Assembly: GCA_041170505.1 (NCBI GenBank)
Contig: JBEAYS010000015.1
Location: 1 to 36,302 of the forward strand
Length of the DNA stretch: 36,302 nucleotides
Source: Cyanobacteriota bacterium
GTDB taxonomy: Bacteria > Cyanobacteriota > Vampirovibrionia > LMEP-6097
Direction of reading: 5' to 3'
The notes below the pieces were generated by a model. That model was given only the letters and a program-made list of their open reading frames with translations. It was not told the DNA's origin and did not search any database. Shown here piece after piece: positions 1,189 through 29,930 of this stretch. Position 1 is the stretch's first letter, and each line of letters begins with the position of its first letter. Made by a program: the position numbers and the translations under genes.

Positions 1189-4140
1189 TCAAAATAAAAT
1201 ATTTTGGAAAATAGAATTTTTAGAATTTGATTCAGTGGTTTTAAAACGCCAACTATTTTTTCCATAAATACCTGAAAAATAACATCCAGAGCTTCCACAA
1301 GCCCCTCTGACAAGGTCTGAATCTAGTAGTACATAGTATTCGGTATTAGCTGAAAAATCGCTAGTGGGATTAATCGTTACAGTCGCACCAGAAATCGAAA
1401 CATTGCCAGAACCTATTGCAATGGTTTGAAAAGTAGAGTCATTACTCAGCTGTTTAATAATAATATTACCAGTATTAGCAGTAACGTTTTCATTAAAGGT
1501 AATGGTGAGGTTAGCTTTTAAAGGGATTTGCGTGGAATAATTATTTGGGTAAGTTTTAGAGATTTTAGGGCGATTATCAGAAGAGTTTGTAGTAACGGAA
1601 TTACTTACTTGATAAAATGTACTTGGTGAATTTTGATTCCTAAATTCAGTTTTTGCCCACTGGTTAGATCTAAGTTTTTTTGATATTCTAACTTCATCAA
1701 TAAATCCATCGCTGTAGTTGTTATCATAATTTCTTTTTCCAATCAAAAATCTTGAAGAATTTATGGCAAGCTTAGTAGGGGCTTTTCCAGAAAAGGTTAG
1801 TGTAGATTGGTTACCATCAAAATAACCAATAATTCGAGTAACGCTAGTTGACGCTGTCCCATTAAAAACGCTTAAGAGATGATGCCAATTAGTGTCATTT
1901 GAATTGAAATTTGCTTCGTTTTGGGCACCATTACGCCAATATAAATTAATAACGCTAGTATTTGAAACATAGATATCAGACATATCATTAATTGTTCCAG
2001 AACCTCCTTTGCTGATATGAATTCTGGAGTTTTTATTTCTTCGTTTGAACCAGATGGAATAAGTCATTTTAGTTGCGTTATCAATTTCACTAATATCAGC
2101 AGTATCGAAATAATCATTTACTCCATCAAAATCAGTCCCATTGCCTAATTGACCTGCCACACGATCGGCACTTGTCATCGAACCATAGGGAGTTCCATAG
2201 TATTTATTTACAGCACTATTATAAATTGCGTTTGTAGCATCACCGTTAGGATTTTCTTGCATATGATAAACAGCTACAAAACCATTTGACCATACGTCAT
2301 GTTTGCCAAGCGGGTCTGAGGCATTTATGGGTCTTGCATTTGAATTGCCATAGTACATATAAAAATCCATATTTGCTGTGTTGCTTAAGTTTGGAGCTTT
2401 GAAATGAAGTTCGCCTAGATTTCCAATGGCATTAAACTGTACAAGCTCACTTGCCAGTACCGTTAGTCCGTCACCCTGGGTGATTCTAATGTCTGCCCCG
2501 TCACTTCTAGTATTATTAAACATATTGGTGGAAGAAAAATCACTCAGTCTCAAAAACACTGGGAAATTGCTCAGTGAGCCATTTACTTGACTATCATCGA
2601 CGGTGAATTTTACTCTTTTGGTCCAATCATTATTCATCCAGCCTGTTATTGGGGCGGTAGTAAAATTCCAAGTAGTACTATCACTAATACCTGCAAAACT
2701 ATTGCCAGCTAAATCATCTATGGCACTGGCATCAATCTGCACATAATAACTAGTACTGGGCGCAAAATCACTGGGATTAAAAGTAAGGCTAGAAGTACCA
2801 TTGCCAGTGGCACTCGTGATACTGATAGTTTGTGCTGTTGAATTATCAGAGGATTTCTTAATGACCAGGTTGCCTGATTGAGTATCTATATTCTCGCTAA
2901 AACTTATTATTAAATCAGAATCGATTGCTACATTTGTAGCACCATCAACAGGGCTTAATGAGCTGATGCTAGGTGGAGTAGAGTTATTGTTTTCTTGGCT
3001 AGAAACAGAATAAAACCCAGAAGGAGAGCTTTGATTAGAATATTCTGTTTGTATCCAAGATTTACCATGAGCATTATCGGATACTCTCAATTCATCGAAT
3101 TGTGCGCTTGCAAAATTAGTATAATTCAAAGAATTTTGATAACCTGCAATTAAATGATTTAGATCTGCTCCACTATTTGGACTAATAGTACTATAGCTCA
3201 TACCTGTTAGAAGATTGCCGTTTACATAAATTTTAAATCTATTATTGCCTGATTCGTTTGCATCATATACCATTACCGAATAAGTCCAGTTAGTATTTCT
3301 AGATTCGGTTTTACTATGATATAAACTATCTCCACCACCAGAATCAGAGCTTCCTTTCCAATCGGTCCCATCATGGAAAAGAGAAATTACAGAAGTGTAG
3401 CTTTTTGCAAAAATAGGGACAACGCTTGTCGTATTTGAGGCTTTAATCCAAGCAGAAAGAGTAAATGCAGAATTTTGATATAGGGAGTTTATCGCCCCGA
3501 GTTCCAGATAATCATTGGAGCCATCAAGATCAACTCCATTGCCAATTTGTCCAGCAATTTTATCACTGGAATTCATAGATCCTTTACTTTTGGCATCATA
3601 ATTATTTGAACTACTGTCCTGAAACTCGCTATCGTTATCATCAGAAGTGGGAGTTTCTTGAAGGTGTGCTACTAATTGATAGCTGGATTTCCAGGTACTA
3701 GTGGAATTAGTTTCAGCCCCTGTTGGGTTACCGTAATAAATATAAAAAATTGAGTTGCTCGTATTATAAAGATTTGGAGCCTTAAACCATAGTGCTCCTT
3801 GATTATTTGTTGTAGTGATAAATTCTATTTCTCTATTAAGTTTAGTAACTTCGTCATTATCTGTAATAACGATATCTCCTCCATCATTTTTTACATTATC
3901 AAAAAAATCAGCCCCAAAATCATTCAGCTTTAGATAAACAGGGAAATCAGTCAAATCACCATTAACTTTGCTATGCTGAACTGTGAATTTCTTGCGATAT
4001 AGCCAATTGCCGTTATACCAGGAAGCTTTGCAGGGTTCATAAAAAATCAATAAACAAAGCACTAAAAATACTAAATTTTTATTTAATTTAAAAATTAGAT
4101 TTTTCAAATAACCCTTCCTTATACATTTTTTATAATACAA
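1189..4140 (-). CDS. Large secreted/cell-surface protein with two tandem DUF2341-like + LamG (concanavalin-like) + Ig-like modules
   Basis: The 983-aa ORF has a signal-like N-terminus (LVFLVLCLLIFYEPCKA). Two ~480-aa modules each carry W-x-[YK]R-x-KFTV...[DN]FPV[YF]L[KR]L...FKAPNL...Y[IM]YYGN (DUF2341-like), AGQ[IL]GNG-x-D[LF]DG-x-NDY (LamG-like) and an Ig-like SbsA-type tail. The ORF-track start at 4140 is TTG. An in-frame TTG at 4107, preceded by AAGGAAGG, is an alternative start. Confidence 0.85.
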   Translation of the reverse strand: MYYKKCIRKGYLKNLIFKLNKNLVFLVLCLLIFYEPCKASWYNGNWLYRKKFTVQHSKVNGDLTDFPVYLKLNDFGADFFDNVKNDGGDIVITDNDEVTKLNREIEFITTTNNQGALWFKAPNLYNTSNSIFYIYYGNPTGAETNSTSTWKSSYQLVAHLQETPTSDDNDSEFQDSSSNNYDAKSKGSMNSSDKIAGQIGNGVDLDGSNDYLELGAINSLYQNSAFTLSAWIKASNTTSVVPIFAKSYTSVISLFHDGTDWKGSSDSGGGDSLYHSKTESRNTNWTYSVMVYDANESGNNRFKIYVNGNLLTGMSYSTISPNSGADLNHLIAGYQNSLNYTNFASAQFDELRVSDNAHGKSWIQTEYSNQSSPSGFYSVSSQENNNSTPPSISSLSPVDGATNVAIDSDLIISFSENIDTQSGNLVIKKSSDNSTAQTISITSATGNGTSSLTFNPSDFAPSTSYYVQIDASAIDDLAGNSFAGISDSTTWNFTTAPITGWMNNDWTKRVKFTVDDSQVNGSLSNFPVFLRLSDFSSTNMFNNTRSDGADIRITQGDGLTVLASELVQFNAIGNLGELHFKAPNLSNTANMDFYMYYGNSNARPINASDPLGKHDVWSNGFVAVYHMQENPNGDATNAIYNSAVNKYYGTPYGSMTSADRVAGQLGNGTDFDGVNDYFDTADISEIDNATKMTYSIWFKRRNKNSRIHISKGGSGTINDMSDIYVSNTSVINLYWRNGAQNEANFNSNDTNWHHLLSVFNGTASTSVTRIIGYFDGNQSTLTFSGKAPTKLAINSSRFLIGKRNYDNNYSDGFIDEVRISKKLRSNQWAKTEFRNQNSPSTFYQVSNSVTTNSSDNRPKISKTYPNNYSTQIPLKANLTITFNENVTANTGNIIIKQLSNDSTFQTIAIGSGNVSISGATVTINPTSDFSANTEYYVLLDSDLVRGACGSSGCYFSGIYGKNSWRFKTTESNSKNSIFQNILF

Positions 4141-5857: not shown

Positions 5858-7675
5858 TTATAAAAACCCTTTTATATAGGTCTGGCGACTGCGAGCTTCG
5901 TTTTTGTATTCACCTTCAGGATTGATTTTGAGATATTTATCATATAGGTTGATTGCATCAAGCAGTTTTCTTTGTTCCTCAAGAATTATAGCCGCAAAAA
6001 ATATTGCTTCTGTCTGATTTTTTTCATCAATGCCATAGGCTTTTTTGTATGCCTCCAAAGCCTCCAAATCCTCACCAATAGCTTGATACGCAGTACCAAG
6101 GTTGTACCAAGCATTTGCATTTTCTGGTACGAGTTTTACTACTTCAAGGTATTTGGCGATAGCTTCACGATTTTGAGCCCCACTTTGTAAAGTGATAGCT
6201 TGCTCAAGAAGTTTATTAGCTTTGGCGGCTTCTGCTGATTTTATTGCTATTTGATAATTAGGATCTGGTTTTAGTTGGTAAGCTTTTTGATAGTTTTCAA
6301 GAGATAGATCATATTGGCCAAGGCCTTGGTAGGCTACTGCAATATTATAAAAGAGACTATCGTCTTGAGGTCGATCTTTTACTATACGATTATAAATGGA
6401 AAGAGCTTCATTGTAAGAACCAGTTTGCTGAAGGCTTACAGCTTTTGAAAAGGCTTCTACAACTAAGCGTTCTTGCTCTTCTTTGTTTAGACTAGCAATT
6501 GCATCTTTAGCCTCTTGGTGATTGGGATTGAGTTCTAGTGCTTTGGAATAAGCTTTTTGAGCTCGAGCTAGATCTTTTTTGGCTTGAAAAGCAGTACCTA
6601 TATTGTAGTGAATATCAGGGTTGTTGGGTTCTAGATTTAGGGCGCGAATATAATTAGCCAAACTTTCATCTAGATTACCTTGTTTTTGAAATTTTATGGC
6701 GCGATCCAAAAAAAGTGCGACTTGAGTCTTGATGCGATCTTCCTTGAGGCTATCAATTCCTTTATTGGCAAGCTGGTTATTAGCATCTATCTGAAGAGCT
6801 CTACGAAAACTTCTTTCAGCCTGCAAAAAATCACCCTTGAGCTGGTAGGCTGTACCAAGACCTACATGATTATTAGCAAGATGCGGAGCAACACGAATTG
6901 CCGCTAACCAGCCGTTAATTAGAGCAGATTGAGCCTCTTCATTTGCGGGATCTTTTTTTATTGCTTGTTGATAGTAATCAATACCAGTGCTAATTTTACC
7001 TGAAGCCACATGCACATCTCCTAATCTAATTAGAGGGCGGGCATCTTCTGGCTCAAGCTGAATTGCTCTGTTGAAGGCAGTTATAGCTTTATCAATATAA
7101 ATTTGTTGATCTGGGGATTTTAAGGATAACAAATGATAATTAGTACCGATTTCTAAATACGCTTCAGTGGTTTCCTTAATGCGATTTGATTCATTTAGCT
7201 CAGCGATCGCCGCCAGAAAATTTTCTGCAATTCTTTCTTGCTTAGCTTGCAAAATTCTTTTTACCGGATCTTTGGCATCGATATTCATCTCTTTTAGTTT
7301 GATTTCAAGATTAGATCTTGCAATATTATTATCAGGATTATAATAAAGTGCGTGACGAAATTCTCTTGCTGAGCCAGTTCCATCTGTGCGCTCCGCTAAA
7401 TACTTACCATAGTTATTATGAGTAATACTCAGATTATTGAGAATCTGTTTATTATTTGGGTTAATGTCTAAGGCTCTTAAAAAAGATTTCATCGCCAGTA
7501 AATAGTTTCTATTACTGTGATAATTAATTCCCTCATTGATCAAATTGTCGACAGCAGATTTATCCTCGGGTCCAAGTTCTGCGTTTATATTTTGGCTAGA
7601 GGCCACAATCAAACAAAAAGTTAAAAACAGACTTTTAAAAACTCTTAAATTAATTTTGAATTTATTTTGCGACAT
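5858..7675 (-). CDS. Secreted tetratricopeptide (TPR) repeat protein, 605 aa
   Basis: The N-terminus is signal-like (LFLTFCLIVASSQNINA). TPR signatures recur: RALDINPNN, RAIQLEPED, RALQIDANN, RALNLEPNN, KALELNPNH, KAYQLKPDP. Confidence 0.85.
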   Translation of the reverse strand: MSQNKFKINLRVFKSLFLTFCLIVASSQNINAELGPEDKSAVDNLINEGINYHSNRNYLLAMKSFLRALDINPNNKQILNNLSITHNNYGKYLAERTDGTGSAREFRHALYYNPDNNIARSNLEIKLKEMNIDAKDPVKRILQAKQERIAENFLAAIAELNESNRIKETTEAYLEIGTNYHLLSLKSPDQQIYIDKAITAFNRAIQLEPEDARPLIRLGDVHVASGKISTGIDYYQQAIKKDPANEEAQSALINGWLAAIRVAPHLANNHVGLGTAYQLKGDFLQAERSFRRALQIDANNQLANKGIDSLKEDRIKTQVALFLDRAIKFQKQGNLDESLANYIRALNLEPNNPDIHYNIGTAFQAKKDLARAQKAYSKALELNPNHQEAKDAIASLNKEEQERLVVEAFSKAVSLQQTGSYNEALSIYNRIVKDRPQDDSLFYNIAVAYQGLGQYDLSLENYQKAYQLKPDPNYQIAIKSAEAAKANKLLEQAITLQSGAQNREAIAKYLEVVKLVPENANAWYNLGTAYQAIGEDLEALEAYKKAYGIDEKNQTEAIFFAAIILEEQRKLLDAINLYDKYLKINPEGEYKNEARSRQTYIKGFL

Positions 7676-9412: not shown

Positions 9413-10924
9413 TTGCCCTTCAAATCTACTAATTTTTTATTACTATTCCTTGCCTTGTTAATTATTAGCGAGGCCCAAGTTAATGCTGAGCAATCAGAGC
9501 GTTTACAATCCCTACTCGAAAAAGCTCGTCAAAGAAAAGCAACACAAACAGAGGGAAAAGTTAATAGTACTAAGTCTTTAGAAGATTCAACGAGGGAGCT
9601 TCCTAGTCAAACTCCCACTACTCCGACTCGGGATCTGGGCTATCAAAGCACTAAAGTTTTAAGTACCGTCGATAAGACCTCAGTTTCAAAAGATGTTCAG
9701 GCTACAGTCCAAACTCCTGCTAAGCCCCCTGAAACTAGCTTGCCAAGTGCTTCACGTCCCCAAGCACCAACGAGCACGTCATCTAAACCAACTGCTGTCG
9801 TTAACCAAACTATCAAAGTTTCTCAACCACCAGTAGCTAGTAATATTTCAAATTCAAAATCTAGTTCGGTAAGTTCCAAAGTGAACGTGAAACCTAATGT
9901 TAGTACGGCTTTTAGCGCACCTAAAAATCCTTATTTGGAGTCGAGCTTATCTAAGCCTGATCCTAAGGCTGTAAAAAATACTGTGGCCGCTAATCCTACT
10001 CCAAAACCCAAAACATCTCTCCAAACTAAACGTGAAGAAAATCAAGCAAGGAAATCCACTCCCTATATTCAACGCGATGACAAGATTAAAGACGACTTTA
10101 TTACAAGTACAAGCGTCAATATTAAACAAGAAAACAAAAAGAAATCAGATGTTAAACCTACTGAGAAAAAAGATAAACAAGAATATATCAAGACGCCTAA
10201 ACTAGGATATGAAGATCAATTAGTAAAAAAACCTGATAATAAATCCAAGACTCCAAGCTTACCGGTTCTTGATTTGAGTAATTTTGATACAAGACCCAAA
10301 GGAGCTTACATCAGTACGGATATGGATGGTATTGGTGTTGCAGAAGATTCAAAAAAACAAGATGAAGAGCTCTTGACTATGTTGCAAGCCTACAAAGAAA
10401 CGGTCCGCAATGAGATAAAAGGGAATTCCAGAGAGGTTTTTACTTCTTCTAGCGTTATTGGTATAGAAGTTCCTAAACCAGCTGATACTTTGACTAATAA
10501 TAATGGAAAAAATCCAGAAAATTCGGCAAGTGAAAATGACTATTTATTGGTTCTTAAAAAGAGTCTCAAATCACTAGAAGAAGATTCATGGGCTCAAGTA
10601 AAACAAAATATGGGAGAGTCTCTTGATTATTTTGCTCGAGAAAAATCTCTTCATCCTGATGATTCTAATTTAGATCTTTATCATCGGGTGATAATGGGAT
10701 TTTCAAGGTTTGCTGAAGGTGGTCTTGAGCTTGATGAGGGTGATTTTGCGGATTTTGAAGAAGCCGAGGCTCTGTATTTGGATTGTTTAGATATTTTGGA
10801 AGATGCAAAATCTCGCATAAAAAAAGATGATGCAGTGAGTAATAGTGTAAAAAATATAATTAATTCAGTAATCAAATACACTGATGAAGAACTTGAATAT
10901 ATTGAACAAATGATAGGTTTATAA
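9413..10924 (+). CDS. Secreted protein with a long Ser/Thr/Pro/Lys-rich low-complexity region and an acidic C-terminal domain
   Basis: The start is TTG. The N-terminus is signal-like (FLLLFLALLIISEAQVNA|EQ). About 300 aa are S/T/P/K-rich, followed by an acidic helical C-terminus. I recognise no family. Confidence 0.6.
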   Translation: MPFKSTNFLLLFLALLIISEAQVNAEQSERLQSLLEKARQRKATQTEGKVNSTKSLEDSTRELPSQTPTTPTRDLGYQSTKVLSTVDKTSVSKDVQATVQTPAKPPETSLPSASRPQAPTSTSSKPTAVVNQTIKVSQPPVASNISNSKSSSVSSKVNVKPNVSTAFSAPKNPYLESSLSKPDPKAVKNTVAANPTPKPKTSLQTKREENQARKSTPYIQRDDKIKDDFITSTSVNIKQENKKKSDVKPTEKKDKQEYIKTPKLGYEDQLVKKPDNKSKTPSLPVLDLSNFDTRPKGAYISTDMDGIGVAEDSKKQDEELLTMLQAYKETVRNEIKGNSREVFTSSSVIGIEVPKPADTLTNNNGKNPENSASENDYLLVLKKSLKSLEEDSWAQVKQNMGESLDYFAREKSLHPDDSNLDLYHRVIMGFSRFAEGGLELDEGDFADFEEAEALYLDCLDILEDAKSRIKKDDAVSNSVKNIINSVIKYTDEELEYIEQMIGL

Positions 10925-11553: not shown

Positions 11554-11581
11554 TTGCAACTATTATTTTACTTGTTATAAA
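11554..11581 (+). promoter_or_regulatory. Candidate sigma70-type promoter upstream of the precursor peptide gene
   Basis: TTGCAA (11554-11559) and TATAAA (11576-11581) are separated by a 16-nt spacer. AAGGAG at 11612-11617 precedes the ATG at 11630. Confidence 0.25.
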
Positions 11582-11629
11582 ATAATCTTCGAGGGGTTGA
11601 ATAAATAAAGTAAGGAGAAACTGAAAAAA

Positions 11630-11896
11630 ATGAAAAAAACAATCAAACTTTCAAAAAAATTATTAGGGGCCGCGCTTGCTCTTGGTTTAGGAACCACGTT
11701 AGTGGCCAACGCTATGTCTACCCCGCAACCAGCAAGTGGTACTGATGCGATGCTAACCATTACTGAAATGCCGACTCATCCTACTTTACTAAGCAATGAC
11801 GATCACGAATGTGGTGAAAGTCAATGTGGTGAAGACGGTGGTGACGGCGAAGGCGGCGGTGATGAGCATGACGAAATGCTAACACCAGCTCAATAG
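11630..11896 (+). CDS. Putative RiPP precursor: Sec-signal peptide plus an acidic two-Cys (CGE-CGE) C-terminal core
   Basis: The ORF encodes 88 aa, with an AAGGAG SD upstream. The signal peptide is MKKTIKLSKKLLGAALALGLGTTLVANA|M. The tail is DDHECGESQCGEDGGDGEGGGDEHDE. It lies immediately upstream of a DUF692/DUF2063 gene pair. Confidence 0.65.
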   Translation: MKKTIKLSKKLLGAALALGLGTTLVANAMSTPQPASGTDAMLTITEMPTHPTLLSNDDHECGESQCGEDGGDGEGGGDEHDEMLTPAQ

Positions 11897-11917
11897 CTAA
11901 CTGTAATTTTTATTTCA

Positions 11918-11951
11918 TCAAGCCCGGAGCCTGTCTTTGGGCTTTTTTTTG
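11918..11951 (+). terminator. Rho-independent terminator/attenuator hairpin between the precursor and the MNIO gene
   Basis: AAGCCC (11920-11925) pairs with GGGCTT (11939-11944) and is followed by a run of 8 T ending at 11950. Confidence 0.55.
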
Positions 11952-11972
11952 GGATTATAATAAATACTAAAG

Positions 11973-12839
11973 GTGTTCAAAAAATCACATTTCAAAAATT
12001 ACGGACTAGGACTGGGCTTAAGAAAAGACCTCCGAAAGAACATCCTAGAACTTGGTTCTGGACTAATAAATTGGCTTGAAATAGTACCCGAAAACTATAT
12101 CTATCGCGGCGGAATTAACCAAAAAAACTTTCAGCAAGTTTTATCTTCTAAAATTCCTTTGATTCCTCATGGAGTTAACCTAAGTATCGGAACCGCTCCA
12201 GATGAGGGTCACAAGGTCGCTTATGATAAATATCTTCTTGAAGGCTTAAAAGATCTTTTTAGCCAAATCAAACCACCCTGGTTCTCAGACCATATATCCT
12301 GCACGAGAATAAATTCTATTTATCTCCAAGATCTAATCCCCGTACCACGCACTTTTGAAGCTGTTGAGATCATCGCAAACAATATAAAATTTTTGCAAGA
12401 TTATTTTCAATTACCATTTTTAATCGAAAACCCAAGCTATTACAGCGATCTAATAGAGCCTGAATTAAATGAAGTAGAGTTTATAAACAAGATTCTCAAA
12501 AGGTCTGATTGCGGGCTTTTGCTGGATGTAAATAATGTTTTTGTAAATGCTGTTAATCATGGCTATGATGCTCTGCGCTTTATTGATAGCCTTGATCTAG
12601 AGCGCGTTGTTCAAGTCCATATCGCTGGACATCTTGAAAATTACAAATGCTGGATAAACAACAAGGTTTTAGGGATTCTTGATACCCACGGACATCCCAT
12701 CAGAAAAGAAGTCTATGATTTACTTGCTTACGTAGCTAGTAAAACAGAAATAAAAGCGGTGCTCCTTGAGCGCGATTCAAACTTTGGGGATTTTGAAGCG
12801 ATAGTAGAAGAGTTAAGAACAATAGAGCTAATCTTATGA
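11973..12839 (+). CDS. DUF692 family / multinuclear non-heme iron oxidative enzyme (MNIO; MbnB/TglH/BufB-like)
   Basis: Conserved DUF692-type motifs are seen: GLGLGLR, HGVNLSIG, WFSDHIS, LIENPSYY, LLDVNNVFVNAVNHG, VHIAGH, LDTHGHP, LLERD. The start is GTG and is uncertain. Confidence 0.8.
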   Translation: MFKKSHFKNYGLGLGLRKDLRKNILELGSGLINWLEIVPENYIYRGGINQKNFQQVLSSKIPLIPHGVNLSIGTAPDEGHKVAYDKYLLEGLKDLFSQIKPPWFSDHISCTRINSIYLQDLIPVPRTFEAVEIIANNIKFLQDYFQLPFLIENPSYYSDLIEPELNEVEFINKILKRSDCGLLLDVNNVFVNAVNHGYDALRFIDSLDLERVVQVHIAGHLENYKCWINNKVLGILDTHGHPIRKEVYDLLAYVASKTEIKAVLLERDSNFGDFEAIVEELRTIELIL

Positions 12840-13582
12840 GCAAGTTATACCAAGTTCAACAAGAAATTTTAAATTATCTTTTAAATCGATCGACGGATTT
12901 TAAACTTTTGAATAAAGATTCTTGCGACGAGCTAGATATTTACAAAAGCTTAATTCTAAATAGCGCTGAAAAGTTCTTAGCAAGCGGGTTTCAGCATAGT
13001 TACACCTTACTAAAAAGCAAATGGCGCGAGATTATAAAATTGTATCTAGAAAATTTCCCTTCTCAATCACCAATTTATTTTATGATAGGTAAAAATTTTC
13101 CAGAATTCATAAAATCAGACCTATTTCAAAAAAAATTTTCTTATCCTGATTTTCTTGGTGAGTTAATTGAATTTGAATGGACTAAAATAGAACTTTTTAA
13201 CTCTGATGAAGATCAAAAAAATAAATCTAGTATCCTAAATCCTGTTTATAAAATTTTGAAATTTAATTACCCTATCACCCAAATAATTGCTTATCTAGCA
13301 GATGAAGATATTAGCCTTGAAGATAAAATTACAACAGAAATAGAAACTGATAGCGAAAATTTGTTTGTTTATAGAGATACCGAAAGCTTACAAATCAAAA
13401 CCTTTATGCTATCAGACAGCGTAATAGAGGTCCTAAAATATTTAGAACAAGGATTAAGCCCAGAGCAAATCACCGACTTATTATGTAATACAGAAAACTC
13501 GGGTCAAATTTCTCAAATCAAACAAGAACTTTTTTATTTATTAGAAAATTTGAAAAAACTAAATATCTTGATAAAATATTAA
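12836..13582 (+). CDS. DUF2063-like MNIO partner protein (BufC/HvfC-like), tentative
   Basis: It is translationally coupled to the MNIO gene through an ATGA overlap (12836-12839). Its size (248 aa), position and N-terminal LYQVQQEILNYLL pattern fit DUF2063 partners, but the sequence evidence is weaker than for DUF692. Confidence 0.55.
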   Translation: MSKLYQVQQEILNYLLNRSTDFKLLNKDSCDELDIYKSLILNSAEKFLASGFQHSYTLLKSKWREIIKLYLENFPSQSPIYFMIGKNFPEFIKSDLFQKKFSYPDFLGELIEFEWTKIELFNSDEDQKNKSSILNPVYKILKFNYPITQIIAYLADEDISLEDKITTEIETDSENLFVYRDTESLQIKTFMLSDSVIEVLKYLEQGLSPEQITDLLCNTENSGQISQIKQELFYLLENLKKLNILIKY

Positions 13583-13610: not shown

Positions 13611-15266
13611 ATGAATTTAGAAATTAGCAATAAAGAAAATTCTTCTAATACCAATTTGGTGGAATTTAACTTGCAGACAAAAATTAATTTTGAGCTAGAT
13701 AAATCTGCGGATAATAATTTTTATGGAATAAATTATTTATCTTATCCTGGCGTGGATAAGATAAATAATGATTGCACCAGATATCTAGAAAAAGATCTTG
13801 AAATTATTTTTGACATTGGGCAAGCCTTGCCGCAACTTAGTTTTGATTATCATAATTTATTTAATGACAACCAAACTAGTTTTAGTCAAACCCAGCAATC
13901 AAGCGGTATTCCAGCTAATTCATTTGGTAGTCTTTTGACTCATAGTTATGCTGGACAAAAAATTCTTGATAGCTTTTCTATCGCTTATATAGAAGCAAGA
14001 GCGATGAAAGAAGCTCTTCCAAAAGATTATCAAATTGATCATTTTATTATTCCTGAAGGTATTTGCCACCTTGATGTTTTAGATGATGCAATTAGAGCAT
14101 TTGGCTTTTGCAAAAACGAAATCGTTACCATGCTCATCCCAGAAAACGCCATAAAAGCATTTCGCAGAACCAGATTTAGTGGCTGGCAAATGGTAGAAAC
14201 CGCATCCAGGGAAGCTAGTATCGGCAAACTTATTCTTAAGCAACCGACAGGCACTTGTGATGAAATTACTCTTACCGAAACTGAGATTATCAATCTTGAT
14301 TCTCCTATCTATAAAGTCAAAATCGGCGAAAGATGGGTTTTAGTGGCGACACAAAAAAATGATTTTATTAACATCAATAAAACTATAAAACTTAAAATCA
14401 ATAATTCTGTCATTAGTAGTCTTAGGACGAATAACACTATCGAGCACGGCTCAGCCAAACAAGAAAGAACGGTAGAAGCCTCTCCTGGACAAGCAATCAG
14501 AGCGATTTTTGCCTTGCTGGGCAATAATTTTGATTTAGTGCCAGAAGCTCTCTTGAATTTTGAAGGCGGCTCTTGGTCATCGATCGCAACAGAAAAAACA
14601 AGTAGCGGAAGATACTGCGGCACTAATAGCATGAATGAAGTGATCAAGCATAAATGGTATCAGCATCCTGAAGTTGCTATTCCTTGGAACTACTTGGGAT
14701 TTGATTATCAGACAGATTCATCAGCTTTACCGTCAGATACTTATACTCTTAGCTTCAAAAACGCACCAGGAGTGAATCTCATCGAATGTCCGCAATACTG
14801 GAAAAAAATCCAGCAAGAATTATTGGTTTTTGTAAGCAGATTTATTTATAGAGAATTTTCTGCAATTGCAAGTAAAAAATTCTTACTCAGCACAAAAGAT
14901 CTCATACATATCACCACTAAATACCTTGCTGAACTCATCAAATCTGATTTTGATATTAAAAGCGATGAGTTCAAGTCAAGAATCGCTGAAATGAGCTGTC
15001 CAAGTGACCTTAAAGAGTTCCTAAAAATGATCGGTCACCTGCACTTAATGAACTCCTCAAAATCTGATTTTTATAGCTCCAAAAAACATCCTCAGTCGCT
15101 AGCTAGACTCAAAAACCTTTTTGAAATAGAAAAATCACTCGATAAACTCTGCCCTGCTAGCGCTAGCAGTTTTAAAACCAGAGTCAGAGCTATACTTGCC
15201 AAGGACCCTGTCACTGAGGGGGTTACGTTGTTAGAGTTGTTTAAGAATTTGCAGAATAACCCTTAA
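13611..15266 (+). CDS. Hypothetical cytoplasmic protein, 551 aa, no recognisable domain
   Basis: This is a long ORF in AT-rich DNA, on the same strand as the DUF2063-like gene and 28 nt downstream of it. It has no signal peptide, no TM segment and no motif I recognise. Confidence 0.7.
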   Translation: MNLEISNKENSSNTNLVEFNLQTKINFELDKSADNNFYGINYLSYPGVDKINNDCTRYLEKDLEIIFDIGQALPQLSFDYHNLFNDNQTSFSQTQQSSGIPANSFGSLLTHSYAGQKILDSFSIAYIEARAMKEALPKDYQIDHFIIPEGICHLDVLDDAIRAFGFCKNEIVTMLIPENAIKAFRRTRFSGWQMVETASREASIGKLILKQPTGTCDEITLTETEIINLDSPIYKVKIGERWVLVATQKNDFININKTIKLKINNSVISSLRTNNTIEHGSAKQERTVEASPGQAIRAIFALLGNNFDLVPEALLNFEGGSWSSIATEKTSSGRYCGTNSMNEVIKHKWYQHPEVAIPWNYLGFDYQTDSSALPSDTYTLSFKNAPGVNLIECPQYWKKIQQELLVFVSRFIYREFSAIASKKFLLSTKDLIHITTKYLAELIKSDFDIKSDEFKSRIAEMSCPSDLKEFLKMIGHLHLMNSSKSDFYSSKKHPQSLARLKNLFEIEKSLDKLCPASASSFKTRVRAILAKDPVTEGVTLLELFKNLQNNP

Positions 15267-18802: not shown

Positions 18803-21595
18803 TTATTTGGCTTTTGCCATCGCTGTAGCTTGGTTTCTGTCAGGAGTTTTTTTGTTTTGTTCTCTGAGCTTATAATACTCGCCGTGCCTACTAAGCTTAT
18901 TAACAGCGGAATCATCGACGCCTACTTTTAACTGCTCTCTAATTCCATGTAAATAAAGTCCATTAGCTAGGTTATATAATTCAGCTCCTATAGTTGTATG
19001 TTGGCAAGTACCAGTAAGGGCTATCATCCAGCCAGCGATAGTCTGGAATAAACCAGATTTTTCTGGACTATAGTTTTGTTGCTTTTTAGCGACATCAGTA
19101 AACACACGCGGGTCACCAGCTTGATCTTGGTGAACTAGCTTACCAGCTGTTACGATACCAAGTGCTGGAATTATATTCGCTAAATTAGTGAGGGCTTTTT
19201 GAATTATGCCTGCACCCGGGATAAAGCTTGCCAAAGTTGCTGTTAGAGCGGTTCCTAAAGTAGCCATACCAGCAAAAGCATAAGTGTTAGCTTCAAAGAC
19301 TTCAGCGTAAGGCTTGCCACTATTTTTTGACATCTTAATTCTGCCTACAGGCTTCAGACCTATTAAATTTCTAAGTGCATGCTCTCTAATTTCTGGGATA
19401 CGCACAAAATCCCAAGCAAGCTTAACGCCTTGCTTAAACTGAGCTAAAGTAGCGACCAAATGCTTACCACCAGGGATTTTGCCAAGCATGCCACCAAACA
19501 TTTCATTAGACCAGCGTTCAATTTCATCCATGGTTTCTTTGGTTAATTTGGCGGCTACACCTTTTTTTTCGTAATAAGGGACTGCATTAGGATTTTTACT
19601 GAATTCAGCTTTTACAGCTTCTTTGTCTTGAAAATCATCTAAATTATAATTGTCTCTCATGGCAAGCTCATTACCGCGACCTATCAAAACCACATTAGAT
19701 AAGGCTCTTAGAATTCTACCGACGGAATTAGTCTGTTCAAAAAAAGTAGAAGTAAGCCCGAACATCTCACCGATAAACTGCCAGTAAAACTTATGAGACG
19801 AAAGATACAAGCCTCTAGATACACCAGACGCTATATTATTCACACCATAAGCCACTCGCTGAGTGAGTTTAGCCAAATTACCAAGAGAACCAAAGCCAAG
19901 AGCATCAGCGATAATCCCCACAGGAGCCGCTCCTATTAAGGCTTTTGAAATATAACTAAGAAGTACATTAAAAGTATGCCCAGCATGTAAGGGATCTAGA
20001 GCCTTTCCAATAACTGGGATAGATTTGATGAAAGGGAATTTATCAAGCAGAGATTTTTCATAAACCTGCCCCTGGAGTGCTTTTTCACCGGCTTCACTAA
20101 TAGGAGTTACCAAGGATTGTTTGCAAGTATTTTCAAGCACAGTCTTAACCCAATCTTGATTTGGATTTAGTTCCATACTAAAGTTGTTATCACCAGCAAA
20201 AAACTCTGAGAATATCGCCGCGTTAAAAGCGTTATTTTCGTGAATATTACTACATTTAAGGATTTTACTTGAATAATCTTGTTTAAAGAAATCTACCCAA
20301 CCCTTCACGGTTTTTATATCACCGTTAGAATTCATCTGGTATTGAGTCTTACCATCATGACTATCGGCGATTTTAGTAAGCGCAAACTCGTGATGTTGGT
20401 TTTGCTTACTAGCTAGCAGTTCTATCATTTTTTCAAGAACCGATGTCTCAGACATCAAGCCTCTTACAATAAAACCAGCACCGCCCAAAAGCAATGCCTG
20501 AGCGACTAAAGCCGCGTCACTACCAGGACTATCACCAGCTCCAATCACGAAATATTTATTTTCTTTATTTAGACGCTGAATATCAAAAACATCAGCTTTA
20601 GAAGTATTTGGAGCAATTTCACAATAAGGCTGTAGGTTTTCGACTACGTTAATAATTACATGTTCTTTTTTTGGAGGCTTAATCTTTTTATTTTTTAACT
20701 CATTTATTAAATCAGTAAGATCTTTATATTTTTTATCAAAATTTTCAAAATCGACATGTGAAACATCATATTCATTTATAGTAAATAAATCCGTGCCTTT
20801 GGGAATTCCTAATTCTTTTTCAGCCCACTCTTGCGCTTCTGGACTTCTAGTAAACCTTGCTAATGTTTTATAAAACTCTAGTTTCCTATCATCGCGTACT
20901 ATATTATCAGAGTCAAAAGCATGCGGAGTCAAGCACATCAAAGCACCAATGCGCAATTTATTAGTTAGCTCTGCTTCAGTTGCTGGAGGATTTTTAGGAT
21001 CGTAATAAGTGCTTGGGAGCTTTATCCCTGAAGCGTTTAATTTTTTAAAGAATTCAGCATCCGTAAACTTTTCATCGCGGTGTTTTTCTACCAAGCTAAT
21101 ATATCTAAAAAAATCTTCTGTTCTAAATTCAGGATGATCTATAAAGACCTTAGGGACTGATTTATACTCAAGTACTTTTAGAGGTTTGGATTCTTGCTTG
21201 TTAGCGACGATCTCTTCTATCTTAGACAAGAAGCCATCTGGCGCGTCAGGTAGCTTGATTTGATTAAGTTTATCAATTAATCTTCCATACTTAATTGCTT
21301 GAGGAGAAATCTGAAGAGTGCCTACTCTAGGATCATGTCTAACAGCGGCAGAGAGACCATTGATGACAAGAGTTTCGTATAAGCTTTTGGATTCTGGTGT
21401 ATCAATATCATGAATACCAAACTCATGAAGCAATCCAGAAATTTCGTTAGGAGAGCGAGGATTAACCCAGTTACCTTTACCATCTCTAAATTTAGGACCT
21501 TCAGTACCGACCAAGCTCGGACCTGGGAATGCTCCAGTACGAGCGGTGTTCACTTCAAAATATCCACCGATTTTTTTGAAGGCGGCAAGTAGCAA
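18803..21595 (-). CDS. Large orphan protein (930 aa from the TTG start; the frame stays open upstream to 22075) with C-terminal Gly/Ala-rich hydrophobic helices
   Basis: This is a very long ORF with no family I recognise. The C-terminal half contains ALIGAAPVGIIADALGFGSLGNLAKL, AFAGMATLGTALTATLASFIPGAGII...IIPALGIVTAGKL and GLFQTIAGWMIALTG. The true start is probably upstream (see findings). Confidence 0.8.
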   Translation of the reverse strand: MLLAAFKKIGGYFEVNTARTGAFPGPSLVGTEGPKFRDGKGNWVNPRSPNEISGLLHEFGIHDIDTPESKSLYETLVINGLSAAVRHDPRVGTLQISPQAIKYGRLIDKLNQIKLPDAPDGFLSKIEEIVANKQESKPLKVLEYKSVPKVFIDHPEFRTEDFFRYISLVEKHRDEKFTDAEFFKKLNASGIKLPSTYYDPKNPPATEAELTNKLRIGALMCLTPHAFDSDNIVRDDRKLEFYKTLARFTRSPEAQEWAEKELGIPKGTDLFTINEYDVSHVDFENFDKKYKDLTDLINELKNKKIKPPKKEHVIINVVENLQPYCEIAPNTSKADVFDIQRLNKENKYFVIGAGDSPGSDAALVAQALLLGGAGFIVRGLMSETSVLEKMIELLASKQNQHHEFALTKIADSHDGKTQYQMNSNGDIKTVKGWVDFFKQDYSSKILKCSNIHENNAFNAAIFSEFFAGDNNFSMELNPNQDWVKTVLENTCKQSLVTPISEAGEKALQGQVYEKSLLDKFPFIKSIPVIGKALDPLHAGHTFNVLLSYISKALIGAAPVGIIADALGFGSLGNLAKLTQRVAYGVNNIASGVSRGLYLSSHKFYWQFIGEMFGLTSTFFEQTNSVGRILRALSNVVLIGRGNELAMRDNYNLDDFQDKEAVKAEFSKNPNAVPYYEKKGVAAKLTKETMDEIERWSNEMFGGMLGKIPGGKHLVATLAQFKQGVKLAWDFVRIPEIREHALRNLIGLKPVGRIKMSKNSGKPYAEVFEANTYAFAGMATLGTALTATLASFIPGAGIIQKALTNLANIIPALGIVTAGKLVHQDQAGDPRVFTDVAKKQQNYSPEKSGLFQTIAGWMIALTGTCQHTTIGAELYNLANGLYLHGIREQLKVGVDDSAVNKLSRHGEYYKLREQNKKTPDRNQATAMAKAK

Positions 21596-25718: not shown

Positions 25719-26474
25719 TTACTTGGTTTTTATTTGGATATAATTGGTTGAATTTGTTTCTCTACTATATACAATTGCTGGCATTGCTACTCCACCTAAA
25801 TCATAAATTGGTCGTTTGTAATATTTTAAATCTACTAATGTTTTGTCTCCGACCCTAATTGTGGTGGGATTCAACGGAGCAAAATATATTTTGAAGGTTG
25901 CTTCACTCGATAAGACATCGCTTAAGGGCAATTCTATTCTATCTTTTGAAGAGCTGGTGTTAGATGGTAAACTAATTCGTTTGAATTCTTCTCCAAAAAC
26001 TTGATCCCCTTCGATATGATCAATGGTAAATAATTTTTTATTATAATAAACATCCATTTCAAGGGTTTCAATCCCGAGGGACTGAAAGCTTGATTTTTTA
26101 TCGTAGGTATTAGCTTTATACTTTACAAAACCCGGATAGAGAATTACACCTGAAAAGTGTTCAAAGACTGGATCTTCAACATCTTGAGCAATATCATCAT
26201 CACCAATATTTAAAATATCTTTTATTAATTTTATTGTGGAGCTAAATGAGTCAATAATTTCTTTTACTTGCTTATATAAAGTCTCAAGGTCTCTAAGTCG
26301 CTGTAATATTGAACCATTTAAAAAACTTTGTTTTTTGAGAAGCTCATATTCTTGCTTAGATATTTTTACATATTGAATTTCTTGATTAGCTACCTGGCTT
26401 GCCATAACATCTCTAAAACTCAATACTAGAGCACAAACCACAAAAACCATTATTTTTATTTTTAAATTAATCAT
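25719..26474 (-). CDS. Hypothetical secreted protein, 251 aa
   Basis: The N-terminus is signal-like (IMVFVVCALVLSFRDVMA|SQ). I recognise no family. Confidence 0.6.
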   Translation of the reverse strand: MINLKIKIMVFVVCALVLSFRDVMASQVANQEIQYVKISKQEYELLKKQSFLNGSILQRLRDLETLYKQVKEIIDSFSSTIKLIKDILNIGDDDIAQDVEDPVFEHFSGVILYPGFVKYKANTYDKKSSFQSLGIETLEMDVYYNKKLFTIDHIEGDQVFGEEFKRISLPSNTSSSKDRIELPLSDVLSSEATFKIYFAPLNPTTIRVGDKTLVDLKYYKRPIYDLGGVAMPAIVYSRETNSTNYIQIKTK

Positions 26475-26701: not shown

Positions 26702-28417
26702 TTGTCATCTAAGGTAAATTTTTTAGGATTAAATAGTAATTTTGATTCAGCTAGTCTGGTGAATCAACTCATTGATCTTGAGACGCAAACCAAAATTAAT
26801 CCTCTACAAACTAAAAAAACTTCTCTTCAAAGAGAAAGATCTTCTCTAGATACTGTTGCAACCAATGTTAGAGACATCAAAACAGCTTTGTCATATAACT
26901 CTATAAAAGATGGTTCAAAAGCTCTTGCTCCAAAAAAAGTAAGCACTAATGATAGTACAAAAGAGTTTATTAGCGTTACTGCCACAGATTCAGCTGTTGC
27001 ACAAAGCTTCCAAGTTTATGTAGATAAACTAGCTACAAATACTATTCGTAAGTCTAGTCAAGTTATCAAAAATGATCTTACAAACGTTTCACCGACTGCT
27101 TCTGCTAATTTTAAAGGAGGAGTTACCTTATCTGATGGAACTGTTACTATTAACGGCGAAACCAAGACCTTCGCCTCCACGGCAGATGATATCGCTGAAA
27201 TAGAAACTTTTTTAAATAGTTTTACTGGTGTTACTGGGACTTTTAATACCACATCTGGAAAATTTGATCTTACAGGAATCACTTCTCTGGGCTCTGCTGG
27301 AGACACTAGTAACATGATTTCTGCTCTAGGCTTAAATAATGCTCAAATAACAGCAGGCAATGTTACAGGTATCCAAAATCTTGAAGCTGTAAAAGCCAAT
27401 GCTGTATTGACTTCTATCGGTATAACGGGCACTAAGATTACTATCAATGGAGCGGATATAAATTATGCACCTGCTACAGATACAATTCAATCACTTGTTA
27501 CAAAAATTAATAACTCCTCTGGTGCAAAAGTAAGTGCTTCATACGATGCAATTAATGGTGAGCTGATAATGACAAATAAATCGACAGGAGCTTTATCAAT
27601 TACAGTAAGTTCTAATGGAAATATCAATCCTCTAAATTTAAATAATGTTGGCAGTGAAACACTTGGCAATAATGCAGAGTTTAGAATTTCTACCTTAAAT
27701 GGAGGAGCTACTCTTGTTAGTAATAATAATTCAATATCCGATATTATTAATGGGGTGACAATTAATTTGACTAAGACTAACTCAAACCCAATTACAGTCA
27801 ATATTTCAGAGGATTCATCTGGCTATAGAACATCGATAGATGAGATTATTAGAAATATAAATAAGTTAAATACTTTTCTAAAAAATATTGATACAACTTT
27901 TTCCAGAAATTTTTCTTCACGAATGAGAAATATTGTTAGTTCAGTTGCTGGCACTAATGGAGTTGATACTTATACTTCACTTATTGATATTGGCTTGAAA
28001 AGCAATTTAGATGCTGATGGAAAGTTTACTGGTTATAGTCTCGATTCAACTCTTTTTAATAAGGCTTTTGCCTCTGCACCAGATGAACTTAATAAAATTC
28101 TTTGGGGTAATTCTAGTGATCCAAAAAGTATTTTTTCTTCTCTCTCAAACGGGAACAAGGGGATTCTTGTCCAGTTGCAGGAACTCATGGATAGTTATAT
28201 AGATCCAAGTGTTCCTGCAAATGGTTTAATTAATCAAATTCAAGAAACATTAAGTTCTCAAATAAAATCTGTTGATTCCCGAATTGAAAAAACTCAAGAT
28301 AGCATTGACAACTTGGAACAGAGAATGAGGAGGCAGTTCTCTCAATTAGATCTTATAACCTCTCAATATCAGCAACAGCAAAGTGCTCTCAATGGTCTAA
28401 TGGCTCAATTAGGATAA
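26702..28417 (+). CDS. fliD: Flagellar filament capping protein (hook-associated protein 2)
   Basis: The start is TTG, 5 nt after AAGGAG. The N-terminus GLNSNFDSASLVNQLIDLETQTKINPLQTKKTSLQ and the C-terminus RMRRQFSQLDLITSQYQQQQSAL match the conserved FliD termini. Confidence 0.85.
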   Translation: MSSKVNFLGLNSNFDSASLVNQLIDLETQTKINPLQTKKTSLQRERSSLDTVATNVRDIKTALSYNSIKDGSKALAPKKVSTNDSTKEFISVTATDSAVAQSFQVYVDKLATNTIRKSSQVIKNDLTNVSPTASANFKGGVTLSDGTVTINGETKTFASTADDIAEIETFLNSFTGVTGTFNTTSGKFDLTGITSLGSAGDTSNMISALGLNNAQITAGNVTGIQNLEAVKANAVLTSIGITGTKITINGADINYAPATDTIQSLVTKINNSSGAKVSASYDAINGELIMTNKSTGALSITVSSNGNINPLNLNNVGSETLGNNAEFRISTLNGGATLVSNNNSISDIINGVTINLTKTNSNPITVNISEDSSGYRTSIDEIIRNINKLNTFLKNIDTTFSRNFSSRMRNIVSSVAGTNGVDTYTSLIDIGLKSNLDADGKFTGYSLDSTLFNKAFASAPDELNKILWGNSSDPKSIFSSLSNGNKGILVQLQELMDSYIDPSVPANGLINQIQETLSSQIKSVDSRIEKTQDSIDNLEQRMRRQFSQLDLITSQYQQQQSALNGLMAQLG

Positions 28418-29120: not shown

Positions 29121-29930
29121 ATGCCGTTAATAGATACTCATGCTCATGTTTGTTTTTCAGTCTATGACTCTGATAGAGAGGAAGTACTGCTTAGAGCTTT
29201 TAACGAAGGTATAAAAAAGCTCATACATCCTTGTTGCAATCTTGAAGAGCTCGAGATATTAATTGATCTTGCTAAAAAATATCAAGGTGATAATTGTATA
29301 AAAATTTTTTCAGCAATTGGAGTGCATCCTACTGAGTTTAGTTCGTGGAAACAAAGTGCAACTGAGTTTATCGAAATGGCCTTAAATAATCCAGAGAAAA
29401 AAAAATATATAAAAGCAATTGGGGAGGCTGGTTTAGACTACTATCATGTTAGCTCTATTGATGATCAAAAAATACAGAAAGAAATTTTTATTCAGCAAAT
29501 TTTAATAGCTAAAAAATACAATCTACCTCTTATAGTGCACACCAGAGATGCTTGGCAAGATACTCTTGATATTCTTCAAGAGTATTATCCTTGTAATAAA
29601 AATGCCGATAGCGGAGTTTTGCATTGTTATACGGGTGATTTAGAATTTGCGCAAAAGGCTATAGAAATAGGTTTTTATATTTCTTGGTCTGGAGTTTTGA
29701 CTTATAATAAAAATTCACATTTTAGAGAGATCGCAGGAAAGCTTGATTTAGACCGGGTTTTAGTGGAGACTGATAGTCCTTTTTTGGCTCCGCAACAATT
29801 TAGAGGCAAAAGAAACGAACCTAGCTACGTTAGGTTTGTAGCAGAAGCTCTGGCTCAATGTTATGCTCTTAGATATGAACAAATTGCTGAAATAAGCACA
29901 AAAAATGCTGAAAGACTCTTCAAGATCTAA
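29121..29930 (+). CDS. tatD: TatD-family metal-dependent hydrolase/DNase
   Basis: MPLIDTHAHV sits at the proposed start. GVHP, GEAGLDYY, PLIVHTRDA, HCYTG and ETDSPFLAP motifs are present. The ORF-track start at 29022 overlaps the upstream zinc-ribbon gene, so the ATG at 29121 (1 nt after its stop) is preferred. Confidence 0.88.
   Translation: MPLIDTHAHVCFSVYDSDREEVLLRAFNEGIKKLIHPCCNLEELEILIDLAKKYQGDNCIKIFSAIGVHPTEFSSWKQSATEFIEMALNNPEKKKYIKAIGEAGLDYYHVSSIDDQKIQKEIFIQQILIAKKYNLPLIVHTRDAWQDTLDILQEYYPCNKNADSGVLHCYTGDLEFAQKAIEIGFYISWSGVLTYNKNSHFREIAGKLDLDRVLVETDSPFLAPQQFRGKRNEPSYVRFVAEALAQCYALRYEQIAEISTKNAERLFKI

Follow-up and report, generated by a model that had tools for sequence, protein, structure and literature searches.

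A putative captophorin-like cassette with a reduced, lysine-free HvfA-type peptide in a Vampirovibrionia bacterium

To which family does a small secreted peptide belong when it is encoded beside the enzymes of a well-characterized peptide-modifying system and matches none of the described precursors? This question is raised by a locus in a 36,302-nucleotide stretch of DNA (contig JBEAYS010000015.1 of assembly GCA_041170505.1, Cyanobacteriota bacterium; hereafter, the window), in which the gene of an 88-amino-acid peptide with a Sec signal precedes the genes of a multinuclear iron oxidase (MNIO) and its DUF2063 partner. An earlier note on this DNA had proposed that the peptide represents an undescribed family of RiPPs (peptides synthesized ribosomally and modified post-translationally). 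We found that the peptide is, from its sequence relationships, a derived, Lys-free, two-Cys member of the HvfA/Buf_EGKCG-oxazolin/Lys-Cys captophorin lineage; thus, the claim of a new family did not hold. The peptide had been set against two described precursor families only, and a third, HvfA/Buf_EGKCG/oxazolin, was missed. The locus as a whole is probably an MNIO-PME1 RiPP cassette of the HvfABC type, captophorin/bufferin-like, with a peptide reduced from multi-repeat KCG precursors and a product with a single Cu(I) site. As part of the same explanation, and with the same confidence, the cassette would be chromosomal and vertically inherited in a Caenarcaniphilales-like member of Vampirovibrionia, a group of cyanobacterial relatives that do not photosynthesize.

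The placement of the peptide comes from sister loci in metagenome-assembled genomes (MAGs) of related Vampirovibrionia (Melainabacteria/Caenarcanales). At these loci, the genes follow the order creatininase, Ser/Thr-rich secreted protein, hisB, small peptide, MNIO, DUF2063 protein, and a gene for about 500-620 amino acids. This synteny was found in L003, L004/L007, L005/L016, L008, L010, L013, L015, and L019, with MNIO homologs 52-62% identical to that of the window. The peptides encoded there have a signal peptide and a linker much like those of the window peptide and then continue into 4-10 (E/D)(G/H)KCG repeats, such as DHKCGEGKCGEGKCGEGKCGE and, in sister genomes with the same synteny, DHKCGEGKCGEGKCG. 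The enzyme pairs at these loci do carry an adjacent Cys peptide, as the earlier note had expected, and this peptide is of the KCG-repeat type.

Two of the sister peptides matched NF050137 (KCGExKCG_twice, the HvfA family of oxazolone/thioamide-modified RiPP metallophores) with 29.3 bits (L004) and 22.4 bits (L005) against a cut-off of 19.5 bits, and the L003 peptide scored just under it (17.7 bits). The window peptide gave no match to this model even at E <= 10, and none to the precursor models of Pfam (E <= 0.1) and NCBIfam (E <= 10), NF050188 included; its link to the HvfA family was found only through the comparison of neighborhoods. When the profile of the peptides of the window clade (A1) was aligned with that of the KCG peptides (A3) by hhalign, a probability of 99.7% was obtained (E = 4.5e-27, 69 columns), and the aligned region comprised the signal peptide, the linker, and the first two CG units (DHxCGExxCGE). 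From the KCG peptides at the orthologous sister loci, their passing NF050137 scores, and the hhalign match, we concluded that the window peptide is a reduced offshoot of the HvfA/Buf_EGKCG/oxazolin peptides. It keeps a single C-G-E-x-x-C-G-E unit and has lost every Lys in its mature part. In the descent that we propose, (E/D)(G/H)KCG multi-repeat precursors would have lost Lys and all but two Cys, and the later repeats would have decayed to a tail of Gly, Ser, Asp, and Glu. The present tail is suggestive of decayed pentamers (EDSSG/DDSSG in P0127, EGGGD in the window peptide), and a change from Cys to Gly or Ser takes one codon step.

The precursor begins with MKKTIKLSKKLLGAALALGLGTTLVANA, followed after the predicted cleavage site by MSTPQ. 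The signal has a Lys-rich n-region, a hydrophobic core of 15 residues, and an A-N-A site for signal peptidase I (SPase I), and the precursor contains neither a lipobox nor a twin-Arg motif. A26-N27-A28 is invariant in all nine homologs. Only eight clusters of precursor homologs were found among 5.8 billion proteins, all of which keep C61-G62, C66-G67, and the signal peptide without variation. The two Cys-Gly dyads are the sole invariant positions of the core (C61, G62, C66, and G67, in 9/9 homologs of the window clade). In L021, where the peptide is 48% identical to that of the window and the MNIO is 85% identical, the core keeps just C-G-x3-C-G with the five-residue spacing (IMCGQSQCGDND). 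Because the dyads alone are retained in this core beside so similar an enzyme, they are likely the functional sites. The ratio of nonsynonymous to synonymous substitution rates (dN/dS) against L002 and L001 lay at 0.12-0.17 in the peptide gene, 0.07-0.10 in that of the MNIO, 0.11-0.21 in the partner gene, and 0.10-0.12 in a 551-amino-acid gene that follows them; the cassette genes are all under purifying selection. The homologous clusters, the invariant dyads, and the dN/dS of the peptide show that the 88-codon open reading frame (ORF) is not a chance one. The predicted mature 60-mer has an isoelectric point (pI) of 4.05, 14 Asp and Glu residues, two Cys, and no Lys or Arg.

The gene layout described in the earlier note was recovered in full: the ORFs of 88, 288, and 248 amino acids, the hairpin with its T-run, and the ATGA overlap all lie where it had put them. 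The note had also recognized the bufferin/Hvf logic, in which an MNIO, a DUF2063 (PME-type 1) protein, and a Sec-signal Cys peptide stand side by side. Its statement that the precursor is of neither the DUF2282 type nor the 6/12-Cys type agrees with the empty model searches and with the two Cys and the Lys-free mature part.

The MNIO matched PF05114 (MbnB_TglH_ChrH, formerly DUF692) over residues 12-286 with 271.5 bits (cut-off, 25; E = 8.4e-81). The motifs HG, SDH, EN, DVNN, HIAGH, DTHG, and LLERD, including those quoted for DUF692 in the earlier note, are all present and align with 3BWW and ten relatives; the residues in them that presumably bind iron were assigned by analogy with MbnB. The best match in the PDB was 3BWW, an HvfB-like protein of H. 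somni (189 bits). The NCBIfam equivalog cut-offs were not reached (HvfB NF003818, 236.9 against 360 bits; BufB NF050167, 238.2 against 310; MbnB TIGR04159, 44.7 against 325). The MNIOs and partners of Vampirovibrionia all fall below the HvfB, BufB, and HvfC cut-offs, those associated with KCG peptides included, and the low scores thus indicate a branch that is deep and separate within the HvfB/BufB group rather than another function. The only named homologs of the enzyme belong to Melainabacteria and Caenarcaniphilales.

In FonB, selectivity residues have been mapped to Arg15/Arg16, Asp249 (the catalytic base), and Phe250 (PMC13097082). At the corresponding positions, the window enzyme has R17-K18 and E-R-D-S, that is, Lys for Arg16 and Ser for Phe250. 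All enzymes of the Vampirovibrionia clade have this Ser, those associated with KCG peptides included. Changes specific to the Lys-free clade are R18K, E241H, E144Y, and Y190F, and E241H adjoins a His that is a presumed Fe ligand. We rejected these substitutions as evidence for co-evolution of enzyme and substrate; the Lys-free clade is a single lineage, with which they are confounded, and thus they are no proof of co-adaptation.

The partner gene is translationally coupled to the MNIO gene by the ATGA overlap. As the earlier note had predicted, its product matched PF09836 (DUF2063; 46.5 bits against 27.2, residues 6-92). Residues 31-247 matched HvfC NF050145 (E = 9e-24; 84.6 bits against a cut-off of 142) over positions 24-236 of the 237 in the model. 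The partner profile gave a single match in the PDB (3DEE, E = 0.02). A single-sequence AlphaFold2 (AF2) model was poor (pLDDT 47), and in it residues 176-242 form a beta-beta-alpha-alpha-alpha arrangement with pLDDT 67-78; the C-terminal domain is probably an RRE. In L001, a relative with 71% identity, the partner (6899-7453) stops at 184 amino acids. The missing part, about 57 residues, corresponds to the three helices at the C-terminus of the presumed RRE, and no remnant was seen in the other frames.

A hairpin with a 10-bp stem (five GC pairs, 11920-11944) and a following T8 separates the peptide gene from the enzyme genes. Each of the 11 loci examined has a GC-rich hairpin with a T-run in this position, and the stem sequences are unrelated. 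The element probably acts as a partial terminator or attenuator and would thereby set the ratio of peptide to enzymes.

What these proteins may do can be proposed from the characterized homologs. Antoine et al. (2025) reported that Sec-signal precursors pair with DUF2063-RRE partners of PME-type 1, and that 776 signal-peptide Cys peptides in MNIO-PME1 clusters are unclassified, 93 of them with two Cys (PMC12452194). Manley et al. (2024) found that HvfBC introduces a change of -4 Da per Cys in AEGKCGEGKCG repeats and that, for every two modified Cys, HvfA binds about one Cu(I) (PMC11252979). The modification, first assigned in HvfA as oxazolone-thioamide, was revised by Gadgil et al. (2026) to 5-thiooxazole, and the class was named captophorins; in Sec-signal peptides, Cys was converted to 5-thiooxazole by every MNIO-PME1 pair tested, with products that bind Cu (PMC13097082).

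By analogy with these systems, for the chemistry as well as for export, cleavage, and the role of copper, the cassette could work as follows. With a partial terminator between the genes, the cell would produce more of the 88-amino-acid precursor than of the MNIO and the partner. In the cytoplasm, a complex of the HvfB-like multinuclear iron oxidase and the DUF2063/RRE partner would bind the precursor, probably via its signal peptide and its conserved linker (...SISE.P...LLSNDDH). Four-electron oxidation at each Cys-Gly dyad would convert Cys61 and Cys66 to 5-thiooxazoles. The modified peptide would then be exported by Sec and cut by SPase I after Ala28. The periplasmic product would be an acidic, Lys-free 60-mer, in which the two heterocycle/thiolate groups may form a single Cu(I) site for sequestration or buffering.

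The cassette shares the order peptide, MNIO, and DUF2063 partner (here with a probable RRE) with HvfABC/oxazolin of Haemophilus influenzae, fontiphorin (FonABC), and gonophorin, as well as the Sec signal of the precursor, the five-residue spacing of Cys-Gly dyads that have Glu following or between them, and, for the MNIO, an HvfB-like protein (3BWW) as the nearest solved structure. In contrast to that group, in which precursors have 6-58 Cys, the window peptide has one Cys pair, with Glu and Gln instead of Lys before Cys, and an acidic Gly/Asp/Glu tail; its MNIO has RK for RR and ERDS for ERDF, DoxX (HvfX) is lacking, and the host is a member of Vampirovibrionia, not of Pseudomonadota. The bufferins Buf1 (DUF2282) and Buf2 (BUF_6/12Cys; Cys-Lys group) are alike in having an MNIO with a PME-type 1 partner and a Sec-exported Cys peptide, and the BufB score of the window enzyme equals its HvfB score; by analogy, 5-thiooxazole chemistry and periplasmic copper buffering would also be expected here. 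Unlike the bufferins, the window peptide has no DUF2282 match, does not have 6 or 12 Cys, and has no Cys-Lys motif; the BufB cut-off of 310 was not reached, and DoxX is again lacking.

A signal peptide and C-x4-C beside MNIO and DUF2063 genes also characterize the CxxxxC precursor family, which we compared by description only (PMC12452194). This family comprises 76 proteins, all from Pseudomonadati, in clusters with DoxX and, in 54%, with Lactamase_B_2, whereas the window has neither gene. The C-x4-C spacing is likewise inherent in EGKCG repeats. Methanobactin (MbnABC) would be similar in the four-electron oxidation of Cys by an MNIO to a heterocycle with a sulfur ligand, two groups per Cu(I). 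It differs in that the window partner is DUF2063/HvfC-like and not MbnC, a Sec signal takes the place of a leader peptide, and transport and uptake genes are lacking. The Melainabacteria MNIO system of the literature, MelA1/MelH with a CPACGMG motif (PMC13056109), was considered and set aside: it is of the ChrH type and unrelated to the window cassette.

Several relatives have peptides of other kinds. In L019, a deeper relative with the same synteny and a 52% identical MNIO, a 91-amino-acid precursor (3705-3980) mixes Lys-Cys (QCGAGKCG) and Cys-Lys motifs (DHDCKG four times, and DKSCKG); in the literature, these two groups of captophorins are kept separate. In L017 (3784-4011) and L020 (3339-3997), lipoprotein-type peptides (...LNAC/N...) precede MNIO-DUF2063 pairs, with MNIOs of 331-382 amino acids that are 50-53% identical. 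These peptides are very acidic, the lipobox Cys is their only Cys, and the L020 peptide ends in HEVEEHHDHH. The L020 locus has a DoxX gene, and large unknown proteins of 454 and 1423 amino acids are encoded downstream of the two pairs, the latter running past the end of the locus. In L012 (3974-5864, on a 1-Mb polished long-read contig), frameshifts break the peptide and DUF2063 ORFs, by either assembly error or decay of the cassette. The MAGs of L007, L008, L009, L010, and L013 are titled 'uncultured Gammaproteobacteria bacterium' despite the full synteny of the locus; their 551-amino-acid protein is 37-44% identical with those of Melainabacteria/Caenarcanales MAGs, and the taxonomic labels are probably wrong.

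Table 1. Features of the peptide-MNIO-partner locus and the adjoining gene (positions in the window)
Feature	Position	Strand	Basis or remark
Sigma-70-like promoter candidate, weak, TTGCAA-18-TAAAAT	11554..11583	+	9/12 matches
Perfect 9-bp inverted repeat, ATTATTTTA-N7-TAAAATAAT	11563-11587		Overlaps the peptide gene's -10-like box
Shine-Dalgarno sequence, AAGGAG	11613..11618	+	Precedes the ATG of the peptide gene by 11 nt
Precursor peptide gene, 88 aa	11630..11896	+	Assigned by sequence as a reduced HvfA/EGKCG-type precursor
Sec/SPase I signal peptide codons (predicted), residues 1-28, MKKTIKLSKKLLGAALALGLGTTLVANA	11630..11713	+	n/h/c-region rule, -3/-1 rule
Precursor residues 29-58			Conserved linker or recognition region
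Precursor residues 59-68			Core, HECGESQCGE
Precursor residues 69-88			Acidic Gly/Asp/Glu tail
Two Cys-Gly dyads, Cys61-Gly62 and Cys66-Gly67 (TGT GGT ... TGT GGT)	11810..11827	+	Predicted MNIO targets, 5-residue spacing
Intrinsic-terminator-like hairpin and T-run	11920..11952	+	Between the peptide gene and the enzyme genes
MNIO enzyme, HvfB/BufB-like, 288 aa, GTG start	11973..12839	+	PF05114
MNIO partner, PME-type 1, 248 aa, N-terminal DUF2063 and probable C-terminal RRE	12836..13582	+	ATGA overlap
551-aa conserved neighbor, function unknown	13611..15266	+	Co-directional, 28 nt downstream

Upstream of the peptide gene, the AAGGAG/AAAGGAG block is kept in 7/7 aligned regions. The sigma-70-like site is only tentatively the promoter of the peptide gene: such sites are no commoner in the region than expected from shuffled sequence, and this one is kept only in close relatives. 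The inverted repeat overlapping it was considered as an operator and rejected, since L002 retains it only in part and the more distant relatives lack it; it is probably a chance occurrence in AT-rich DNA. Scans for Rfam families (gathering threshold), tRNAs, and tandem repeats found nothing relevant.

The cassette lies between hisB (PF00475) and the 551-amino-acid gene, as the earlier note had reported, but the latter is not the orphan that the note took it for; it belongs to a small, conserved, lineage-restricted family with 43 homologous clusters. An exhaustive profile search of 1.84 billion representatives gave 23 clusters, all of this protein's own family, and no match was found in Pfam, NCBIfam, or the PDB sequences. 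The closest homolog (92% identity) is from a 'Candidatus Caenarcanales bacterium' MAG from Lake Mendota, and further ones are from 'Candidatus Melainabacteria' MAGs. The AF2 model (pLDDT 83, pTM 0.83) shows a helical C-terminal domain after an alpha/beta region. The sole significant match by Foldseek was the GH57 maltose-forming amylase 4CMR (E = 1.4e-4, TM 0.34); a GH57 function was not accepted, the match being too weak and the GH57 conserved regions not being convincingly placed by eye.

No DoxX or copper-homeostasis family was found among the 32 window ORFs of at least 100 amino acids, and tblastn of the window with a DoxX from a related locus gave nothing, in agreement with the earlier note, which had seen no DoxX-like gene. 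Its view of the host as a low-GC, non-proteobacterial organism was likewise correct (GC about 29-42%; Vampirovibrionia). The rest of the window encodes housekeeping functions, tmk, L9, panC, alr, uppS, fliD, and tatD among others. A secreted-looking protein of 503 amino acids (9413-10924, +), rich in Ser, Thr, Pro, and Lys and with no family match, is encoded between the creatininase-family gene and hisB; its position is kept in all relatives with lengths of 216-548 amino acids. The presence of fliD (26702-28417) indicates a flagellated lineage of Vampirovibrionia. Further window ORFs with no Pfam match are at 18803-21595 (-, 930 aa), 25719-26474 (-, 251 aa), and 29905-30762 (+, 285 aa).

Several points weigh against the reduced, copper-binding HvfABC-type cassette that we favor. 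The window peptide fails every precursor hidden Markov model tested, NF050137 included, and is without the defining Lys of the Lys-Cys group. This Lys contacts the enzyme in FonB, and FonBC only partly modified non-Lys variants such as NVCGG (PMC13097082). The MNIO, with Ser for FonB Phe250 and Lys for Arg16, and the partner both score below the HvfB, BufB, and HvfC equivalog cut-offs, and the AF2 model did not confirm the RRE fold of the partner. No DoxX, sigma/anti-sigma pair, or copper-homeostasis gene nearby ties the locus to copper. Modification, export, and metal binding are all argued by homology. One rather unlikely reading of these features is that, in this freshwater Caenarcaniphilales clade, an HvfA-type peptide with multiple copper sites has been re-tooled into a minimal, Lys-free, acidic metallophore with a single site. 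In that case, the MNIO would have co-adapted (R18K, E241H, and E144Y), and the rules for the substrate, the preference for the metal, or the role would be altered, possibly with the 551-amino-acid GH57-like protein replacing DoxX. If so, the cassette would provide a natural minimal model of metal coordination by bis-thiooxazole and constitute a new functional subclass. A truly new RiPP family, with a different MNIO chemistry or a role other than copper (e.g., binding of Ca, Zn, Fe, or Mn by the Asp/Glu/Gly-rich, His-containing tail), is unlikely. It would explain the lack of a match to any precursor model, the acidity of the Lys-free mature peptide (its pI and 14 acidic residues contrast with a pI of 5-7 in the KCG relatives), the four MNIO changes of the clade itself, the low enzyme scores, and the lack of a copper gene context. 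However, the window peptide is clearly homologous to the KCG-type peptides at an orthologous locus, and what it conserves is the Cys-Gly dyads and the five-residue spacing of the EGKCG unit; the low scores, shared by KCG-associated sister enzymes, reflect the lineage, and the substitutions define one clade and are confounded with its phylogeny.

The 551-amino-acid gene raises the possibility of a four-gene unit, in which this cytoplasmic protein (a remote GH57-like (beta/alpha)-barrel with a helical domain) would be a lineage-specific accessory that replaces DoxX or adds a further tailoring step. The gene lies directly 3' of the MNIO-PME genes in every locus with enough sequence, co-directional and with gaps of 6-118 nt, even where the genes farther downstream differ (epimerase/tmk/L9 versus TP_methylase/S18/L28). 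The family is nearly as narrowly distributed as the window MNIO clade, and the low dN/dS of the gene would also be in keeping with such a role. We nevertheless consider this quite unlikely. L011 (1350-3730, on a 3.8-kb MAG contig of 'uncultured bacterium', Loclat_bin-07551) has a homolog of the 551-amino-acid gene 119 nt after hisB with no peptide, MNIO, or DUF2063 gene between them, and is a natural cassette-minus state of the locus. Since hisB and the creatininase and Ser/Thr-rich genes are equally syntenic, the adjacency reflects vertical synteny and is no evidence of functional linkage, and membership of the gene in the cassette is doubtful; moreover, the protein has no known RiPP-related domain, and its only fold match is a glycoside hydrolase. 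Finally, the fall in Cys number from 4-10 to 2, the tail pentamers resembling decayed repeats, the frameshifted peptide and partner ORFs of L012, and the truncated partner of L001 might mean that the precursor has lost most of its Cys on the way to a non-functional cassette. This is very improbable, as all three genes are under purifying selection, both dyads are invariant across nine clusters that diverge to 48% identity, and the catalytic motifs of the MNIO are all intact; frameshifts are common in polished long-read assemblies such as that of L012.

The HvfABC-type cassette with a reduced precursor does not open a new class, either of chemistry or of biology; its class is abundant and well characterized, and unclassified two-Cys precursors have already been reported. 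What is new is a minimal captophorin cassette of the HvfA type, DoxX-less and with a two-Cys, Lys-free peptide, in the little-studied Vampirovibrionia, although the type of cassette had been described. MNIO-PME1 clusters are very common (more than 24,000 loci), nearly all work on them has been in Pseudomonadota, and the present locus takes the HvfA-type branch into Vampirovibrionia. The published EGKCG peptides aggregate on Cu loading, which blocked structural work (PMC13097082); a natural, highly soluble acidic variant with a single pair could provide a minimal system in which Cu(I)-bis(5-thiooxazole) coordination is tractable. One orthologous locus offers a natural series from multi-repeat KCG peptides, through the mixed KCG/CKG form of L019, to the two-Cys, Lys-free form of the window, and the paired enzymes diverge along this series, which makes it useful for finding the determinants of substrate selectivity in MNIOs.

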